From contig OX597821.1 in the NCBI GenBank assembly GCA_951406725.2, positions 28,830,001 through 28,894,000 on the forward strand: 64,000 nt of DNA. The letters run 5' to 3'. Both the position numbers and the translations under genes were made by a program. Below are positions 6,761 to 51,318 of the stretch, piece after piece; within the stretch, counting starts at the first letter, position 1, and every line of letters begins with the position of its first letter. Under the pieces are notes generated by a model, which had not been told where the DNA came from, searched no databases, and saw only the letters and a program-made list of their open reading frames with translations. This stretch comes from Octopus vulgaris (Eukaryota).

Positions 6761-8899
6761 TCAATCAGGTTGCCGGGTAGGTCTATAGTTCTTGTAGTTC
6801 GCATACTTCTTATGCATGCAATTTGGGGAGTGTTCTGAAAATTTGTTAAGGAGAGGGCCTTTGGCGAACAAGATCTCTAGGCTCTCTGATATGCATAGGT
6901 CACAGCAGGTATGTCCTCCTGTGTACGAGCGCGCCTTCTGTAGTAGTTTCCACTTGGTCTTGAAGGGGATTGAGTTCCTTTTAAGGTACCAGATGTGGGC
7001 GGCGAGGGTAGTTTGGTTGGATTTATCCTGTCGCCGGAACGAGTGTGTATGTGCGTACCAGCGGGTCTTAAAGCTGTTTGACGTCATTCCAATGTAGGAT
7101 TTACTTTTATCGTCAAGGCCTGATCTTACCTCGCATTTATATACTAGGTCCCTCTGTAGGCAGTTGTTGTTGAGGGGGCAGGTGGTTTTATCATGGCAGT
7201 TGCAATTGCTATCGGACGTTGGATGGGCCCCGGAGAAAGTAGATATGTTAAGTTTTTTCACATTGTTGTTGGCTAGGTTCCTGGCTAGGTTGGGCGTGGT
7301 AGAGTAGGAGAGTCTAATAGTGTTCTTATTTAGGATAGTGTAGTACTTATGTTGGGTGGGGAAGTGTTTCTGTAGGAGAGTGAAAAAGATCTTAGCTACA
7401 GGTGTAGCGACCTCACGGTTGAAGGGGGGTTGTACCAGCTAATGTGTCTTCGTCTATTTTTCCTGGGTTGGCGTGGGGCTATACTAGTGTAGGTAATCTT
7501 ATCTTTAAAACCACTGCGGGCCAGGGCCTCGTTGTAATAGGGGGCTGCGGCCTTAAAGATATCTTCCGTGGCGGACAGGCTAGAGATTCTAATTGAGACA
7601 CTTTTTACTAGGTTATCTAATATATTTCTGGGGTGGTTGGAATTGATATCTATATATCTAAGGGATTCATTTGGTTTGTGGTACGGGTAATAAAGTGAGG
7701 TTTTTAAGTCGAGGGTGACATCTAGGAAGTTAGCCTTTGTTAAGTTGGATTCTAGGGTAATCCTAAGGCCTAAGTTTTTAAAGAAGGTGTGAAGATTTTT
7801 CCGGAACCCATCCGTGGTCCTGGGGTTTATATTGTGGAGGGCGAAAAGGCCGTCATCTCGGTAAAGACCACCGGAGAGGCCTGTGAATAGGGTTTTCAGC
7901 CTATGGAGGATGAAAAGGCCCACTAGGTCACTTATTTCAGCAGAGTCGTTAGCACCCATGCTGACGTCGAAGGGGGTCACAGATTTTTTGTTGATCCAGT
8001 GGGATCCGTCATAGAAAAAAAAGTCTTACGTGCGTGGAGGATCACATCTTGCTCGGCCTCGGTGATGGTGGAGGACCTCCTGGCGAAGTTAATCGCATCG
8101 ATCAGCAAGCTCTCCGATATAGAGGCGTAGTAATCCTCGATATCCAGTTGTAGGAATCGGGTGTTGCTTTTATCTGGTAAATCCCGGAACCAAGTTATTG
8201 CCTCGGAGGTCCTATTCCAGAGTGGAAGGGTGAAGCTTCACGCATTTTTGGTAAAATCCTGTCCAGGATCTTCTTGCTGACGGATCCGATGTCAGACTTG
8301 GTTGGGTTAATCAAACGGACCGACTGTTTATTTTCGAAATGGTCTTTGTGGTCTTTCAGGATGAAGTGTGGGGACTTCACCCTCAGGGGTTCTGTTCGGT
8401 CGTCGATTTTAAGGGAGGTGGCAATCTCTTTCCCGGCCAAGTTGGTTTCAGTTAGCGCTGCGTCGTCTACTTTCTTGTATTTAGCTGTGATGGCGTTATC
8501 GGCTAGTCTATTATAGGTATCCGGAGTCACCGCGTAAATATTTTTTGTCTTGTCCGAAGGGACATGGAGGTTCTGGGAGCTTTTCATTTTCGAAAGCTTC
8601 GCATTCAGTTCCGTTTGGAAAGGTAAGTTGATTCTCCTGAATTTGATGTTTTTTATCATGAGGAAGAGGTCTTCTTCAAACGGTTCAAGTAGGCTGTTGG
8701 TAGGAGGGGCCTTATTTGATTTGAAGCCGTACTTATCATTACTGGTAGATGCTACATCAGGGTTGTCGAAGAAGAAAGATCTCCATCGAATTCTTTTGAT
8801 GAACTCATCAGTCCGTCTAATGAGGGCTTTTTGGTACTGTTTCCTTGGTGGGATAGTAATGTTCTTCAGGGAAGTGTCGAGGTCGATTCTTGTCAGCAT
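6761..8899 (-). CDS. PLE polyprotein: reverse transcriptase + C-terminal GIY-YIG endonuclease (~712 aa; three apparent -1 frameshifts)
   Basis: RT motifs LKDHK..F, RLINP, MGANDSAEISDLVG, LYRDDG, FLDVTLDL, SNHP. Linker CNC..CPL..C. Endonuclease VYKCEV...YIGMT...FKTRW..H..SF and CDLCISE. Fragments 8195-8899, 7396-7980 and 6761-7261 join by single-base shifts near 8224, 8015-8022 and 7424-7429. Confidence 0.9.
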
Positions 8900-9030
8900 T
8901 TTTCTTGGTGATGGTTATAAGGGCACTAGGGTGTGCTAAGATATGTAGGTCCCGGGTTGAATCGGGGTTAACCACAGTAAGTAAGGTACTCAATACATAG
9001 CAGAGTAAAATTAATTTATTATATAGAAGG

Positions 9031-19840: not shown

Positions 19841-20062
19841 TTTTTCATAGATGTGCAAGATCATTTATATTAAGAAATAATATCATTATAATCGTTTTCT
19901 GAATCACTTTCACCCACACTAAACTTGCGCACATTGAGTGCTTGTGAATCGGTGATCGCATCTACACGTTTGCGCAAGTCTAGCGCGAGTCAAAGTGATT
20001 CAGAAAATGATAATAATAATAATAATATTTCTCATTATAAATGATCTTGCACATCTATAAAA
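19841..20062. mobile_element. fully palindromic MITE
   Basis: TAGATGTGCAAGATCATTTATA...TTTTCTGAATCACTTT...ACTTGCGCA mirrored by TGCGCAAGT...AAAGTGATTCAGAAAA...TATAAATGATCTTGCACATCTA. TSD unclear. Confidence 0.75.
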
Positions 20063-20149: not shown

Positions 20150-20526
20150 TCTTACTTTTTACTTGTTTCCGTCATTTGACTGTCGCCATGCTGGAGCACC
20201 GCCTTTGACGAACAAATCGACCCCAGGACTTATTCTTTGTAAACCTAGTGCTTGTTCTATCGGTCTCTTTTTGCCGAACCGCTATGTTACGGGGACGTAA
20301 ACACACCAATATTCGGTTGTCAAACGATGGTGGGTGGGGACAAACACAGACACAAATAACAAGCACACACATACATATATATATACGACGGGCTTCTTTC
20401 AGTATCCGTCTACCAAATTCACTCACAAGGATTTAGTCGGCCCGAGGCTATACTAGCAGACACTTACCCCAGGTGCCACGGAGTGGGACTGAACCCGGAA
20501 CATTGGGGTTGGGAAGCAAGCTTCTT
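20150..20526 (-). mobile_element. SINE family B (body; the head continues at 22747-22786 beyond an insertion)
   Basis: Reverse complement of 48111-48571. The head is interrupted at GGGAAGCAAGCTTCTT. Confidence 0.85.
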
Positions 20527-22746
20527 TATTTCATTAGATTTGCCATAAAGTCATTAAAACGACAGAAGCAAGTGCTGGCTTGACAATAACACAAATGAGA
20601 TGATATGATGAACGACATAATGATATTAATGAGAGAGGCAAATCGACGCCCGCCGTTCAACGCCCCTCGATAACACTGTTCTTTTTTCCTTTTTTTTTTA
20701 AAGCAAAAAACAACAACACAAATGAGGTAATGAACCTCTAACACTAACATAAATTGAGGCGATAACCCTCTTATCGATCTATATTATTCTCTACACTTTT
20801 CATAATATGCAATAATAATTCAATGACAAAATGAGGCGCTAAACCTTCTACCTTTCTTTCCAAACTTGGAACTTTCAATAATACTGAGGATTTTCAACCT
20901 CTTATCACTATTCCTCCTCAACATCGCTTGTGCCCGCATACTCCGCCATCACCCAAGCCTCATTCAAGATCAAAGAGGATGCCACAAGCGATATTTCTCA
21001 GCCTATTCATCACGAGCACCGTTATGACCTCCACAGCTATCTGCGGAGGCCACTCGGGATCCTGTGTGCACGCTAAAGGTATTCCCTTAAGGTGCTTTTC
21101 CACCACCGTTTCTACCTCTCCGCCTCTATAGAAGAAGACCAATAATTCGTCTTCCTCCGGCGGCGGGATATCCAATTCTACCGTTGGCGGCACCATTCCC
21201 GCCAACGATGTCTCTTCCCCCAGCCGGTAGCACAACCCCTACCGACGAGGTTCCGGGACATTCCGAGACTATGTCACCGACTGCCGGCAATGTCTCGTTT
21301 CTCTTCCTCTTCCCCTTTTTTTCTTTTCAACTGACGGAGGGTGCGTCCTCTCCGTGACCGGGAGATTCGTCTCCTTTTCTTCATCCCTAGCATCCTTCGG
21401 TGAGCACCCATTGTTGCTGACCTTCTTCCTCTTGCGGCCCTTCTTTGAAGAGTCTTCCGCCTCCTCGGCCACCATTCCCTCTTCTACTGAGGTCTCAATC
21501 AACTGCTCCAAGACCTTACTTTGTTCCTGGGGGCCGTTTTTCTTTATAAGGCCACGCTCTAGGCACCAATGACACCTGGGTGGGTGGCGACCTTCAAGAA
21601 TCACCGGGTACCTGCACCCGGCTATTTTCAAAAAATCTGGAAAAACCATATTGGCTGATTGGGTCCAAAGGGTCAAAACAGCTTTTGACCCAACTCAATC
21701 AGCCGCAGGAAAAACTTTCGCATTAAGGAGCTTGGCTCCGCTGCCACCAAAATCCCAACAGATAGTCTCCTCTATCCATCCGGATTTTATCCCGGGTGGC
21801 AGACCGCAGACCCAAGCTTTTGTCAACCTCTTCCCACAAACAAAATTTCTTTGCCCGCTAAGGGCTGCCTTGCAAATTTGCGAGCCTCTTCAGGGGTGTC
21901 ACATAGAAACCACATCGTTGCGTATTTGACACCCTGGAAATGAATTCAATAGTTAACAGATACTCTGCCAACTTTTCAATTACAGTCTTTTCGAATAGGG
22001 CGATGGTGTCGAACGACTTGGAGTACGTCCTCAACACAACCGTCCTCTCTTCACAGTCTTTCAACCACTGTTTGGGTGGCATAATTTCCTACTCCAAAAC
22101 ATTGTCTTTTTCAGTGCCGTATTTTTTCTTTTTTTTATAATAACAGTTCGAAAATAGTTCAAAATAAAATTTAAAAAGAGAGAAGAAAAAGAAAGAAATC
22201 AAAAGAAATTCTCAATAAAATGGAAGGAAGGAATGGAAAACAATTCACGAAAAAAGAAAGTAAAAAAAAATTAGAAGAAAGAAAGTCAATAGTTCAAAAA
22301 CAACAAAAATAATCTACCGGCCACTAGGTACTCCCGGCCAAGTTTGAACCCAGAACGCCACAACTGGAAAACAACTTCCACAAAAGCTGGTATACAAGAC
22401 GTTCAATCTTCGGAGGCAAAAATACTCTCCCAAAACAGCAATTCACAATTAATTTTAAAATTCACAAAAAAATGAACAAATTTTTAGGAGGCACGATACG
22501 CCCCCAAGCAACAATTCTCACAATTAAGTGAGAAAAAATATTCATATAATGTGAACCACTAACTTGGAAATGGGATACGCCCCCAAAGAAAAATGATTAC
22601 CGCAAACAACAAACCCCCACTAGACCCAAAAAACAAGAGTTTTACCTTACAGCGGAGCTTCAAAATTCTTCAATTTAAGACGGCTTTAAAAGCACGTCTT
22701 GACAGCTTCAGTGCCAAACACTACACTCACTCGCACATGTGCAGTG
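20527..22746 (-). mobile_element. ORF1-only Tx1/L1-like non-autonomous retroelement (HAL1-like)
   Basis: 16-bp TSD GGGAAGCAAGCTTCTT at 20511-20526 and 22747-22762. ~660-nt 5' UTR, disrupted ORF1, 3' end ...AATGAAATAAAGAA (last bases overlap the TSD). No RT or endonuclease motif seen. Confidence 0.75.
20960..22082 (-). pseudogene. Tx1/L1-type ORF1 (gag-like, zinc knuckle), frameshifted
   Basis: Starts MPPKQWLKDCEERTVVLR. FPDFLKIAGCRYPVILEGRHPPRCHWCLERGLIKKNGP resembles the Tx1 ORF1 pattern P..I.I.G...V..G.PP.C..C...GH....CP, with a degenerate knuckle followed by acidic/basic low-complexity sequence. Confidence 0.65.
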
Positions 22747-22804
22747 GGGAAGCAAGCTTCTTACTTCATAACCACTACAGCGCCTATAATATATATATAT
22801 ATAT

Positions 22805-31414: not shown

Positions 31415-32519
31415 TATTGCTTATTTAGCTTGGGTTCGAATTTATCAATAAAATTCTTTTCTCTGATTTTCCTCTCGATTTCACTTGGGCTGTGTAATTT
31501 GTAGAATGGAAATATTATATATATTTTCCGACCACATGTTGCTAGGTGGTTACTCAAAGGTATCTGACGGACCTCTGGGTCTCTAATCTGTTGCCGGTGT
31601 ACACGTGAGCGTTCTAATAGTGCGTTTCCCGTCTGACCTACATATATTTCTTCACAATTTGGGCATTTGATGGCAGTAAATTAAATTTCTGCTTTTGCAG
31701 TTCATATTCGCGTTTGTGAATATTTTCCCGGTTTTTGTGTTTATATATTGACCGGTATGTATGAATTGGCATGTGCCACATCGGCTATCATTGCATTTAG
31801 ATACCGTGAATGTTTGGTCTTTGTTGCTGAGGTCAAATTTTGCCTTTGTTAGTAATGTTTTCAAGTTTTTAGGCTGTCTTTTACTAAGCACCATAGCTCG
31901 ATCCTTGATTATGTCTTTTAATTCATTACTTTGGGCAATGATTGGAAGGTTTGCTTTGGCAATGTTGAAGATATTCTGGTGACATGGGTTGTGTGTCACT
32001 ATGAATGGTATGACTTGTTCTTGTTTTCCTCTTCCTTGGGTTGTCCTAAGTTGTTGTATAGGTATTTTTATAGCCCGCTGTATGCCATTTTCTATAAGTA
32101 GAGATGGGTATTTTTGTTTGAGCAAAAATTTCTTAGTTCTATTAGGCGTTTGTTCCTGATATTTGCATCTTCTACAATAGTACAAATTCTTCTGGCTAGG
32201 CAGTATGGGATGTTACGTTTTGTATGTGGTGGATGGCACGACTTAAAATTTAGGTATTGATGTGTGTCTGTGTGTTTATAGTATATATCTGTGGTGATGG
32301 TGGTGTCTTTTTTAATTACCATTATATCCAGGAATGGTAATTTGGTACTACTCATCTCCTTTGTAAATTTGAGAGATGGGTGTAGGTTGTTCAGGAGGAT
32401 ATTGAACTCTTCCAGAGTATTTAGAGATTCTGTCCAGATTATGAAACAGTCGTCTAGGTATCTCTTCCATGCCTTTTCAATATACTTTCTAAATCCAGTG
32501 CCATAGTTTACCTCCACCT
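31415..32519 (-). pseudogene. inverted 5'-truncated copy of the PLE ORF with indels
   Basis: ORFs 32092-32607 and 31652-32185 reproduce the same protein, with frameshifts near 32130 and 31670. Confidence 0.9.
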
Positions 32520-32869
32520 GATGAATTTTGCGTTTTGGTTGTGGTACTTTACTTGGTTTCGTTATGTTTTCTGTCTTGTTTTTGGTATTATGTATGCTAC
32601 TTTTCAATTTCTTGTTAGCCTACCACAACCTCCTTGGATGTCAGAAATAAACGAAAGAAATCTGGAAAAAGAGGCACACCGAAAAAGAGAAGAGATACAG
32701 AAGACATGGAAAAAACTCCTTAACATAAGAAAACAAAACTTCTGGAAGGCATATAAATGCGAAAAATATGCTGAAATACATTCGAAATGGATATCTTTAG
32801 CGGCACCCATACTTCCTCGGAAGTACCTAATTAAAGAAATTAGGTCTAAGCAATTTTATTGACATTGTT

Positions 32870-34345
32870 TTGAAACCACTATGTACTTACATACCAAGTT
32901 TCATCAGGGATGACATCGACTTCCTGTCCCATCTTCCCAAAACAACAGAAACAAATTCAGTTTTGCTAAGTTTTGATGTGGTAAGCTTCTACACCAATAT
33001 TCCACACGATTTAGGAATAAAGGCGATTAAATACTGGTTAGAAAAACATAGAGAAGTGATTCCCAGCAGATTCACAGTGCCATTTATATTAGACACAGTC
33101 AAACTTATTCTAGAAAATAACACATTCTTCTTCAATGGAAAGAATTACATCCAAATTAGAGGCACGGCGATGGGAACGAGGTTTGCTCCCGTTTACGCCA
33201 ACTCTGTAATGGGATACTTAGAAGAACAACTCTACCAAGAGGTGGAGGTAAACTATGGCACTGGATTTAGAAAGTATATTGAAAAGGCATGGAAGAGATA
33301 CCTAGACGACTGTTTCATAATCTGGACAGAATCTCTAAATACTCTGGAAGAGTTCAATATCCTCCTGAACAACCTACACCCATCTCTCAAATTTACAAAG
33401 GAGATGAGTAGTACCAAATTACCATTCCTGGATATAATGGTAATTAAAAAAGACACCACCATCACCACAGATATATACTATAAACACACAGACACACATC
33501 AATACCTAAATTTTAAGTCGTGCCATCCACCACATACAAAACGTAACATCCCATACTGCCTAGCCAGAAGAATTTGTACTATTGTAGAAGATGCAAATAT
33601 CAGGAACAAACGCCTAATAGAACTAAGAGAATTTTTGCTCAAACAAAAATACCCATCTCTACTTATAGAAAATGGCATACAGCGGGCTATAAAAATACCT
33701 ATACAACAACTTAGGACAACCCAAGGAAGAGGAAAACAAGAACAAGTCATACCATTCATAGTGACACACAACCCATGTCACCAGAATATCTTCAACATTG
33801 CCAAAGCAAACCTTCCAATCATTGCCCAAAGTAATGAATTAAAAGACATAATCAAGGATCGAGCTATGGTGCTTAGTAAAAGACAGCCTAAAAACTTGAA
33901 AACATTACTAACAAAGGCAAAATTTGACCTCAGCAACAAAGACCAAACATTCACGGTATCTAAATGCAATGATAGCCGATGTGGCACATGCCAATTCATA
34001 CATACCGGTCAATATATAAACACAAAAACCGGGAAAATATTCACAAACGCGAATATGAACTGCAAAAGCAGAAATTTAATTTACTGCATCAAATGCCCAA
34101 ATTGTGAAGAAATATATGTAGGTCAGACGGGAAACGCACTATTAGAACGCTCACGTGTACACCGGCAACAGATTAGAGACCCAGAGGTCCGTCAGATACC
34201 TTTGAGTAACCACCTAGCAACATGTGGTCGGAAAATATATATAATATTTCCATTCTACAAATTACACAGCCCAAGTGAAATCGAGAGGAAAATCAGAGAA
34301 AAGAATTTTATTGATAAATTCGAACCCAAGCTAAATAAGCAATAA
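32870..34345 (+). CDS. PLE reverse transcriptase + GIY-YIG endonuclease (N-terminally truncated, 491 aa open)
   Basis: SFDVVSFYTNIPH, QIRGTAMGTRFAPVYAN, RYLDDCF, LPFLDI, YLNFKSCHP. Cys linker KCNDSRCGTC...NCKSRNLIYCIKCPNC. YVGQTG..L.ER...HR endonuclease. Confidence 0.92.
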   Translation: MKPLCTYIPSFIRDDIDFLSHLPKTTETNSVLLSFDVVSFYTNIPHDLGIKAIKYWLEKHREVIPSRFTVPFILDTVKLILENNTFFFNGKNYIQIRGTAMGTRFAPVYANSVMGYLEEQLYQEVEVNYGTGFRKYIEKAWKRYLDDCFIIWTESLNTLEEFNILLNNLHPSLKFTKEMSSTKLPFLDIMVIKKDTTITTDIYYKHTDTHQYLNFKSCHPPHTKRNIPYCLARRICTIVEDANIRNKRLIELREFLLKQKYPSLLIENGIQRAIKIPIQQLRTTQGRGKQEQVIPFIVTHNPCHQNIFNIAKANLPIIAQSNELKDIIKDRAMVLSKRQPKNLKTLLTKAKFDLSNKDQTFTVSKCNDSRCGTCQFIHTGQYINTKTGKIFTNANMNCKSRNLIYCIKCPNCEEIYVGQTGNALLERSRVHRQQIRDPEVRQIPLSNHLATCGRKIYIIFPFYKLHSPSEIERKIREKNFIDKFEPKLNKQ

Positions 34346-39481: not shown

Positions 39482-40302
39482 AGTTTCTTTATTGGCCACA
39501 CAGGGCTGCACACAGATGGGACAAGTTACAAGGTAGAGCTTTTCTTTTGGGGGATGAAAAAAACAAAAAAACAAAAGAAACAAAAAAAGGGGGCGGCGTG
39601 GCGTAGGTAAAGGGGAAGAAAAGAACAAAAAAATAAAGAAAAATAAAAAAAGTAAAAAAAGAAAAGGAAAAGGAACAAAAGAAAAGAGAAATGAAAAAAG
39701 AAGAAAAAAAGGGGAGAAAAGGGGAAGAGGAAAAAAAACGATCAATAGGGATCGTGTATCACAATGTTATGATATATGTTGTAAAGGGGGAAGCAAGTAA
39801 GGTTTATCCGTGGGAAGAAAAGCCTACGAAAAAGACCACGGTTACCTTGGTCAATATTGTTATATGTTGCCACATTTGTTCGCAAGTGGGTAACCCTCTG
39901 TTTTCAATTTCTGCGTTCATAGGATTATGCTCAAGGTGGCTTCGTCATTCATACGTGCCATCTTTGCTACATTCGCCCATCTTTTTTTAAAACATTCGCT
40001 AGACAAAACTTGCCTCTCTACTCTCACTTTCCTTTTCAAGTGGTACGTGAAGAAGTTGATGAGAGATTGACCAGAGAGGAAAGTGTTTGTCTCCAATCCT
40101 TTCAGACGCGTCCACCAGATACATTCTTTCGCCATAGCCACAAGGATGATGAAAATAGCTCTTCCTTCCCGTTTGAAGGAAGGAGGCGTGACAATATTGA
40201 CGATAGACTCAGCTGATAAACCGACTCGTCCCACACGTGACAGCAGTTGTTCGACACAAGCCCACAGGTCGGAAATTGCGTGCAGAACGGTTTCGTCGCT
40301 CT
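39482..40302 (-). mobile_element. 5'-truncated Tx1/L1-clade LINE (ORF2 C-terminus + 3' UTR)
   Basis: SDETVLHA..LW zinc-knuckle remnant, then ...AKECIWWTR...KKRW (ORF 39917-40234). T-rich UTR ending GCCCTGTGTGGCCAATAAAGAAACT. (GATA)n on both sides. Confidence 0.8.
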
Positions 40303-40384
<82 letters not shown>

Positions 40385-40619
40385 GTATTGATTAGAGAAG
40401 TATCAGTTTCCTATTATCCTGTAATGTACGTGAGTGTGTGTGTGTGTCTGTATGTGTGTGTGTGTGCGCGTATGTGTGTGTGTCTGTGTGTATGTGTGTC
40501 TGTCTGTGTGTCTGTGTGTGTCTGTGTCTGTCTGTGTGTCTGTGTGTCTTTGTGTGTGTGTGTATGTGTGTGTGTCTGTGTGTGTGTGTCTGTGTGTCTG
40601 TGTGTCTTTGTGTGTGTGT

Positions 40620-49137: not shown

Positions 49138-49169
<32 letters not shown>

Positions 49170-49174
49170 GCTTC

Positions 49175-50767
49175 TGTAGCTATTTCTAGCATGTGGTTGA
49201 CCACATAGAAGCGATTCAACTTGCCCCGTTGTCATCTGGTACAATACTAGAAGACGTTTTCAAGACTGTAGGGTCATGAGAAAATAGTTTCTTCTCTGTC
49301 TTTTTACTAATACTTTCACAGAGAAGGAGGGCTTGTGTAGCTATTTCTAGCATGTGGTTGACCGCATAGAAGCGATTCAACTTGCCCCGTTGTCATCTGG
49401 TACAATACTAGAAGACCTATTCAAGACTGTGGGGTCATGAGAAAATAGTTTCTTCTCTGTCTTTTTACTAATACTTTCACAGAGAAGGAGGGCTTGTGTA
49501 GCTATTTCTAGCATGTGGTTGACCACATAGAAGCGATTCAACTTGCCCCGTTGTCATCTGCTACAATACTAGAAGACCTATTCAAGACTGTGGGGTCATG
49601 ATAAAATAGTTTCTTCTCTGTCTTTTTACTAATACTTTCACAGAAAAGGAGGGCTTGTGTAGCTATTTCTAGCATGTGGTTGACCACATAGAAGCGATTC
49701 AACTTGCCCCGTTGTCATCTGGTACAATACTAGAAGACCTATTCAAGACTGTAGGGTCACGAGAAAATAGTTTCTTCTCTGTCTTTTTACTAATACTTTC
49801 ACAGAGAGGGAGGGCTTGTGTAGCTATTTCTAGCATGTGGTTGACCACATAGAAGCGATTCAACTTGCCCCGATGTCATCTGGTACAATACTAGAAGACG
49901 TATTCAAGAATGTAGGGTCACGAGAAAATAGTTTCTTCTCTGTCTTTTTACTAATACTTTCATAGAGAGGGAGGGCTTGTGTAGCTATTTCTAGCATGTG
50001 GTTGACCACATAGAAGCTATTCAACTTGCCCCGTTGTCATCTGGTACAATACTAGAAGACGTATTCAAGACTGTGGGGTCACGAGAAAATAGTTTCTTCT
50101 GTGTCTTTTTACTAATATTTCACAGAGAAGGAGGGCTTGTGTAGCTATTTCTAGCATGTGGTTGACCACATAGAAGCGATTCAACTTGCTCCGTTGTCAT
50201 CTGGTACAATACTAGAAGACGTATTCAAGACTGTAGGGTCATGAGAAAATAGTTTCTTCTCTGTCTTTTTACTAATACTTTCACAGAGAAGGAGGGCTTG
50301 TGTAGCTATTTCTAGCATGTGGTTGACCACATAGAAGCGATTCAACTTGCTCCGTTGTCATCTGGTACAATACTAGAAGACGTATTCAAGACTGTAGGGT
50401 CATGAGAAAATAGTTTCTTCTGTGTCTTTTTACTAATACTTTCACAGAGAAGGAGGGCTTGTGTAGCTATTTCTAGCATGTGGTTGACCACATAGAAGCG
50501 ATTCAACTTGCCCCGTTGTCATCTGCTACAATACTAGAAGACGTATTTAAGACTGTAGGGTCATGAGAAAATAGTTTCTTCTGTCTTTTTACTAATACTT
50601 TCACAGAGAGGGGAGGGCTTGTGTAGCTATTTCTAGCATGTGGTTGACCACATAGAAGCTATTCAACTTGCCCCGTTGTCATCTGGTACAATACTAGAAG
50701 ACGTATTCAAGACTGTGGGGTCACGAGAAAATAGTTTCTTCTCTGTCTTTTTACTAATACTTTCACA
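49175..50767 (+). repeat. tandem array of ~161-bp units, ~10 copies
   Basis: TGTAGCTATTTCTAGCATGTGGTTGACC starts at 49175, 49336, 49497, 49658, 49819, 49980, 50140, 50301, 50462 and 50622. Confidence 0.95.
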
Positions 50768-51318
50768 AAGCAGGACTGTGTTGTCTTACATTGAAATGTG
50801 TAGAAATATGTTTCGTCCTCCCGTGTATTCCTATTGTTATCATCTTTACCTATTGTAATCTCTGTCTACTAAGAGATATATATTATTGTACTCAATCATG
50901 TTTTCATTTTTTACTGTATTTTAAATTTATTTATTTATTTATTTTACTATTGAAAATAGTATTGTTTGTGTAACATTATACGTTATTGTATGCTACTTTT
51001 CTGTTATTTTGTATAATCGCTGTTTTTGTTATCGCATTATCATGTTTTATGATATTTTATTTATTTAAAAAAAAAAATTAAATATTGTGTTTGAATCAAT
51101 GGAGCAGCTTAGGTTACAATGATATTATCTTTGTAACTACAATGACAATGAATATTATTGATTTGTTTTTCAATTGAATTGAATACTTTTTTTTAATGCA
51201 AAATAAATCAATATTGACTTTTAGACACAAAACTAACCCCTGTATATCAATTATTTTTCTAAACTGGCACGAGGCCACAACTTTTAGAGGCTAGGTGTAA
51301 ACTATTACCTCATACCCG

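Follow-up and report, generated by a model that had tools for sequence, protein, structure and literature searches.

An ORF1-only LINE family targeted to a single base of an octopus SINE, and a decayed copy in Octopus vulgaris

The window copy and its host SINE

The window, that is, the whole stretch of 64,000 nucleotides of Octopus vulgaris DNA that was analysed, contains a 2,220-bp insert at 20527..22746, read on the minus strand and bounded by exact 16-bp repeats at 20511..20526 and 22747..22762. It splits the head of a tRNA-like SINE on the same strand: excision of the insert restores the SINE, of which the diverged A-box part lies at 22763..22784 and the rest, with B box, body and tail, at 20160..20510, 82% identical to an intact copy from another locus (L163). 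We presume the positions of the A and B boxes from the general box consensus, which puts the target directly after the A box. The SINE head aligns with genomic tRNA-Lys/Glu at a z of about 5, eight anticodon types having been sampled, and an Rfam search of the head gave no tRNA match. An imperfect inverted repeat of about 220 bp, MITE-like, adjoins the SINE at 19843..20062.

All parts of the insert are on the minus strand. In reading order they are a 5' UTR (22121..22746) whose first bases are common to a young intact subfamily (L174/L181), a broken ORF1 (20908..22120) with a degenerate zinc knuckle (21533..21574), the main part of the 3' UTR (20576..20907), and the 3' tail of the family (20527..20575), common to an autonomous LINE described below, which ends in ATGAAATA. 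There is no poly(A): in the window copy the hexamer AATAAA is formed only across the junction, where it is completed by the target at 20511..20526, here the older, A-type variant. At 20564..20571, about 45 nt before the end of the element, the tail holds a short motif that is antisense to the target; its predicted pairing is 0.49 in this copy.

A preliminary description, made from the letters alone, had the borders of the insert and the split SINE head right, as well as the long 5' UTR and short 3' UTR (about 630 and 380 bp as measured here) and the absence of reverse transcriptase and endonuclease: tblastn with the ORF2 of the autonomous LINE finds no match in the insert. The ORF1 that it called complete is broken: the longest ATG ORF has 126 aa, the start codon position reads ACG, and, set against intact relatives, the frame has two in-frame stops and at least five frameshifting indels. 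The knuckle reads CHWCLERGLIKKNG and lacks the His and last Cys ligands of the CX2CX4HX4C pattern that relatives keep intact. The 3' end had been given as AATAAAGAA; the element actually ends in ATGAAATA, and AAGAA belongs to the target. The same description suggested that the family may supply its own RNA chaperone; with its ORF1 broken, the window copy is incapable of this, and only young relatives could do so. The window copy is an old, dead and ordinary fossil of an unusual system.

The family, its partner LINE and the history of ORF1

A search of the 2.8-Gb genome with the window insert returned 2,427 candidates; 40 were scored, the 39 other than the window copy being 74-87% identical to it. 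A protein search with an intact relative returned 12,053 candidates, and many frames longer than 400 aa are found among the best 150 of them. Many dispersed full-length copies exist, which bears out the earlier view of a multi-copy, non-autonomous ORF1-only unit that moved whole. That view also predicted that the copies would have distinct target site duplications (TSDs): instead, one target sequence is common to all of them.

The 3' ends of 30 copies picked by similarity were counted by hand, and 23 of them lie at the same base of the SINE, between its A and B boxes; two others reach the SINE body through small deletions, five have no 3' end, and none lies outside the SINE. Exact junctions between element and target number 108 of an old type and 570 of a young type genome-wide, the two types being those of two SINE variants, with none in reversed controls, and a single tail type accounts for 289 ends at the exact target. 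An off-target probe, which would catch about 70% of random neighbours, retrieved 12 ends, of which 7 lie at an exact target and 5 at a degenerate one. The family is thus target-site specific: its insertions fall at a single position between the A box and the B box of a very common SINE. Empty heads with the exact sequence are far more numerous, 7,529 with AAGAAG and 67,568 with AAGTAG, or 75,097 genome-wide. The comparison of about 680 filled with about 75,000 empty heads is rough, since the patterns differ, and by it the effect of the insertions on the SINE population looks small. The idea that the SINE itself inserts at the target was dropped as unsupported: in a small sample of about 190 SINE 3' ends in the sampled loci, there was one candidate (L090).

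At the protein level, O. sinensis, O. vulgaris, O. bimaculoides and Argonauta all have annotated relatives of ORF1, and the closest named proteins belong to species of Octopus and Argonauta. Most of one young copy is covered by contigs of public sequencing runs that bear the names of three other organisms. A 2,083-nt contig of run X1 spans most of a young copy; the runs are only guessed to be RNA, the contig may be DNA, and it carries no weight here.

The same target is used by a young autonomous LINE of 5.45 kb, with a 467-aa ORF1 and a 1,133-aa ORF2. In 20 loci picked by ORF2, both frames are present, with endonuclease, reverse transcriptase and zf-RVT domains; the 3' end lies at the same target in 19 of the 20 fetched loci, and the 3' tail is similar to that of the ORF1-only family. 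The best PDB match of its ORF2 is human L1 ORF2p (E 4e-67), R2 scoring 1e-19, and the protein has the traits of the L1/Tx1 group: an APE endonuclease, a reverse transcriptase and a C-terminal zinc finger, with L1 closest. We classify the partner, from its sequence, as an L1/Tx1-type LINE; membership of the Tx1 clade proper is probable, from architecture and site specificity. The shared tail and target suggest that the ORF1-only family is likely mobilised in trans by the ORF2 of this partner. The window itself holds a 3' fragment of an L1/Tx1-type ORF2 at 39920-40402 on the minus strand, 56% identical to the partner and interrupted by a GATA microsatellite.

Intact ORF1s of 409-427 aa are found in several ORF1-only subfamilies. 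The predicted model of an intact ORF1 has two RRM-like domains (pLDDT mostly 74-92) and the knuckle, followed by a basic linker, which is disordered, and a small domain at the C terminus; the ORF1 that had been described as gag-like is thus predicted to be a tandem RRM plus CCHC protein rather than a retroviral gag-like one. In Pfam, zf-CCHC stays below cut-off for the ORF1-only proteins and no L1 ORF1 match is found for them. In structure searches with the whole model, the RRMs filled the matches, and the best Z, 8.6-8.9, is modestly above background; the model of the C-terminal domain (pLDDT 47) is too poor for such a search.

Could the ORF1-only copies have arisen from the autonomous LINE by internal deletion, recently or repeatedly, so that ORF1 is a passive relic in them? 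Tail and target are common to the two kinds of element, more than one ORF1-only lineage exists, and internally deleted LINEs are a known class, according to the accessible part of PMC5786205. However, the window-type ORF1 is only 29% identical to that of the partner (E 4e-22), which makes the half-LINEs old lineages and not fresh deletions. In an unrooted tree of 17 ORF1 rows, the window type forms a separate clade (100/100), and the four sampled autonomous ORF1s form their own (99/99), adjoined by further ORF1-only types. The ratio dN/dS, a check that the preliminary description had proposed, also argues against a passive relic: it is 0.09-0.27 over 15 pairs of representatives of six ORF1-only subfamilies, with dS up to about 2. 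The C-terminal domain has higher values (0.16-0.65, the highest being 0.44-0.65), and the youngest subfamily has an internal value of 0.37, on only 23 changes. By these sequence comparisons, the coding capacity of ORF1 is kept in the family by purifying selection, the window copy excepted.

The census of the junctions points the same way. Automatic classes for 100 of the 108 old-type junctions comprise 45 with the window-type ORF1 alone, 3 with another ORF1 type alone, 11 with only the C-terminal part of ORF1, 9 with ORF2 and 32 with no ORF, and the window-type ORF1 occurs in none of the nine that bear ORF2. The preliminary description had considered that the window copy might be a single-copy deletion, other copies having ORF2 between ORF1 and the 3' UTR: there is no such case in 93 partly overlapping loci, which were selected for their resemblance to the element or to its ORF1 and, in the case of L218-L230, partly for their long open frames. 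Internal deletion as the origin of these copies is largely refuted, and we regard it as very improbable. An autonomous element with a window-type ORF1 may exist outside the sample, since the best 150 of 12,053 candidates were scored.

Several loci show mixed arrangements. At L269:482-5499, in minus-strand reading, a window-type ORF1 with most of its 3' UTR is fused to the end of a partner ORF1, followed by ORF2; this chimera was met in 1 of the last 20 loci. At L266, a separate ORF1 of the autonomous type and a piece of ORF2 lie downstream of an ORF1-only element. We read both arrangements as secondary fusions. Five near-identical 1.2-kb copies with an internal deletion (L129-L133, G000:C14:73.4-74.3 Mb) are probably a segmental duplication. 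Other ORF1-only types, of 1.4-2.5 kb and with an ORF1 about 40% identical to that of the partner, are found at L215:6775-7998, L139, L145, L072 and L097; these are nearer to the partner, and the ORF1-only state may have arisen several times. Finally, intact or near-intact ORF1s at L197, L191, L196 and L216 join the N-terminal half and the C-terminal domain of different subfamilies, which suggests recombination between subfamilies.

Junctions, arrays and target variants

The preliminary description spoke of a clean 16-bp TSD. The repeat is indeed exact in the window, but the family data reduce the part of it that is duplicated genome. In one subfamily, all of the 11 solo copies have a left repeat with the same 1-bp deletion, which their right repeats never show; in another, of 8 copies, three have right-repeat variants at positions 11-15, which the left repeat never mirrors. 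By contrast, both sides carry the private variants found at positions 1 and 7 (L019 and L221, the two cases on which the test of mirrored variants relies), and three truncated copies share a repeat of 10 bp. These tests used named subsets, as the 83 solo calls made automatically include about 5 that are false. From such left and right variants it is likely that about 9-10 bp are duplicated genome, and that the element brings the remainder of the 16-bp repeat. By extension, the target-like repeat on the 5' side of the window copy (22747..22762) would comprise a likely true TSD of about 10 bp and about 6 bp carried by the element.

A 2.6-kb dimer has moved as a unit: its internal junction was found in 9 loci, 2 of them at the same place. 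Inserts of 0.49 kb with no ORF, which we do not count as a family of their own, match the second unit of this dimer and begin exactly at its internal copy of the target, in line with target bases being borne by the element. At L211-L217, mixed units are arrayed head to tail, 4-9 of them within a single SINE head, the array sites being G000:C5:78.74 Mb, C1:223.70 Mb, C10:101.18 Mb and C1:29.27 Mb, with only short target between the units. By rebuilding the target at its 5' border, each insertion would allow later copies to stack into arrays; the young arrays could come partly from tandem duplication. An extra T recurs at successive junctions in two arrays, and may record the order of insertion.

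A common site might also be the trace of a single old insertion, with SINE head, insert and SINE body propagating as one composite retroposon. The same SINE flanks are indeed present at every solo copy, the 5' ends of the elements carry target-like bases, and the dimer shows that larger units can move. On the other hand, 7 young copies differ from each other by 0.52% and their flanking SINE halves by 13-15%, that is, the flanks are 25-30 times more divergent: the insertions were independent, into SINE copies that already existed. Moreover, array units are separated by only short target, and the site is common to ORF1-only subfamilies, to copies truncated at the 5' end and to the autonomous LINE. 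We consider the composite very improbable. As for a processed pseudogene of a host RNA-binding gene, it can be dismissed as practically excluded: the predicted tandem RRM fold does recall host hnRNP-type proteins, but the homology to LINE ORF1 is clear (E 4e-22), there are hundreds of copies in subfamilies at a fixed target and with no poly(A), and the match to a host gene that the preliminary description had kept in mind amounts to one relative labelled automatically 'EPM2A-interacting 1-like', the other named relatives being uncharacterised or CCHC octopod models.

The target exists in two variants, and tails are sorted between them. For one tail type, the first 100 ends in the list were counted by hand: 83 of 83 young-type tails abut AAGTAG and 17 of 17 old-type tails abut AAGAAG; genome-wide, one young-type tail abuts AAGAAG, where about 24 would be expected at 10%. 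Young copies avoid the older SINE variant. The antisense motif in the tail varies in a similar way: the A-matching form is found with 29 of 116 A targets and none of 85 T targets, whereas the form that matches T accompanies 69 of 85 T targets and 23 of 116 A targets. In 6 of the 11 junctions that were folded, the motif has a predicted pairing of 0.87 or more with the read-through target; within the last 50 nt of the element, a single conserved hairpin was not consistently predicted. Because the motif counts are not independent of subfamily descent, we take this matching as a hint only that the target is tracked by pairing. In its boldest form, the hint would make the LINE and several ancient ORF1-only riders a guild of hyperparasites that track an evolving SINE promoter by base pairing, through target-like bases at both RNA ends and the antisense tail motif. 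We find this doubtful. If true, specificity would be partly encoded in RNA, and, as the SINE changed, it would have passed from the older variant AAGAAG to the younger AAGTAG.

A mechanism and its relation to known systems

The explanation that we hold with good confidence is the following: the insert is an old copy, now dead, from an ORF1-only family that inserts at a fixed base of the SINE and is likely mobilised in trans by an L1/Tx1-type LINE with the same site and the same tail. An active copy would be transcribed, and its RNA would extend by a few bases into the target, so that AATAAA is completed there. Its own ORF1, with two predicted RRMs and the CCHC knuckle, would coat this RNA in cis. 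The partner ORF2 would then bind the shared tail, nick just before AAG(A/T)AGCTT and reverse-transcribe from the nick; the second strand would be cut about 9-10 bp downstream, where the end of the cDNA, with its target-like bases, could anneal. The target would thereby be rebuilt at the 5' junction. Cis action, transcript ends and cut positions are proposed here on the strength of sequence patterns.

Both ingredients of this system are known separately, as far as the accessible literature goes: elements of the HAL1/HeT-A type, and Tx1 elements that target other transposons. ORF1-only LINEs are a known class, with HAL1 derived from vertebrate L1, HeT-A from Jockey and Ag-Sponge from CR1 (accessible parts of PMC5786205 and PMC3627910). 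Like these, the octopod family encodes ORF1 only, a capacity that was long kept, and would depend on a partner ORF2; it differs from what is described there in its octopod host, its single SINE base as site, its lack of poly(A) and its several coexisting lineages. Site-specific LINEs of the Tx1 clade are described in PMC4494074, the available text of which lists Tx1L in Tx1D, Tx1-Mar in Mariner-N4_AMi, Tx1-8_Crp and Tx1-4_AMi in LTR elements, Tx1-9_AMi in Harbinger and Keno in U2, together with a passenger, SINEU-3, that has the same target as its Tx1 LINE, a 16-bp TSD and tandems. The octopod partner is likewise an APE-type element at a fixed position in another repeat; unlike the cases in that text, among which no SINE target is named, its target is the promoter region of a SINE, and its passengers are protein-coding, ORF1-only elements. 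The targets of Dewa, Mutsu and Dada are spacers between tRNA genes, 5S genes and genes for small RNAs (PMC3706591, in part). The octopod target would be, as theirs, a high-copy, Pol III-type and harmless landing site, yet it is a mobile tRNA-like repeat that changes over time and not a host gene.

Since intact young copies are found alongside dead old ones, and the target has two variants, it becomes possible to test the need for ORF1 in cis, the joining of LINE 5' ends and the shift in specificity. HeT-A forms head-to-tail arrays at telomeres, which the octopod arrays recall, but the latter are interstitial. HAL1 in the strict sense has an L1-type ORF1 with one RRM, and a poly(A) tail: the octopod ORF1, with its CCHC knuckle, two predicted RRMs and no L1 ORF1 match in Pfam, in an element with no poly(A), falls outside that definition.

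A literature search found neither a LINE specific for a SINE head with ORF1-only riders nor a cephalopod ORF1-only Tx1; subscription papers, Repbase, Dfam and supplements may hold them. In the accessible parts of two octopus repeat papers (PMC13282606, PMC8967140), L1-Tx1 appears only as a class, and the repeat libraries in their supplements may hold these families. With the present family, ORF1-only retrotransposons are now seen in a molluscan L1/Tx1-type system that is site-specific, with a three-tier chain of parasites: a SINE as landing pad, a LINE, and ORF1-only riders.

The window has other repeats. Two remnants with a reverse transcriptase, at 6764-8914 on the minus strand and at 31655-34342, resemble Penelope elements in their motifs, judging by eye; the second has frames on both strands. 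A satellite-like array occupies 49159-50775, with 10 copies of a 161-bp unit and 96% matches.
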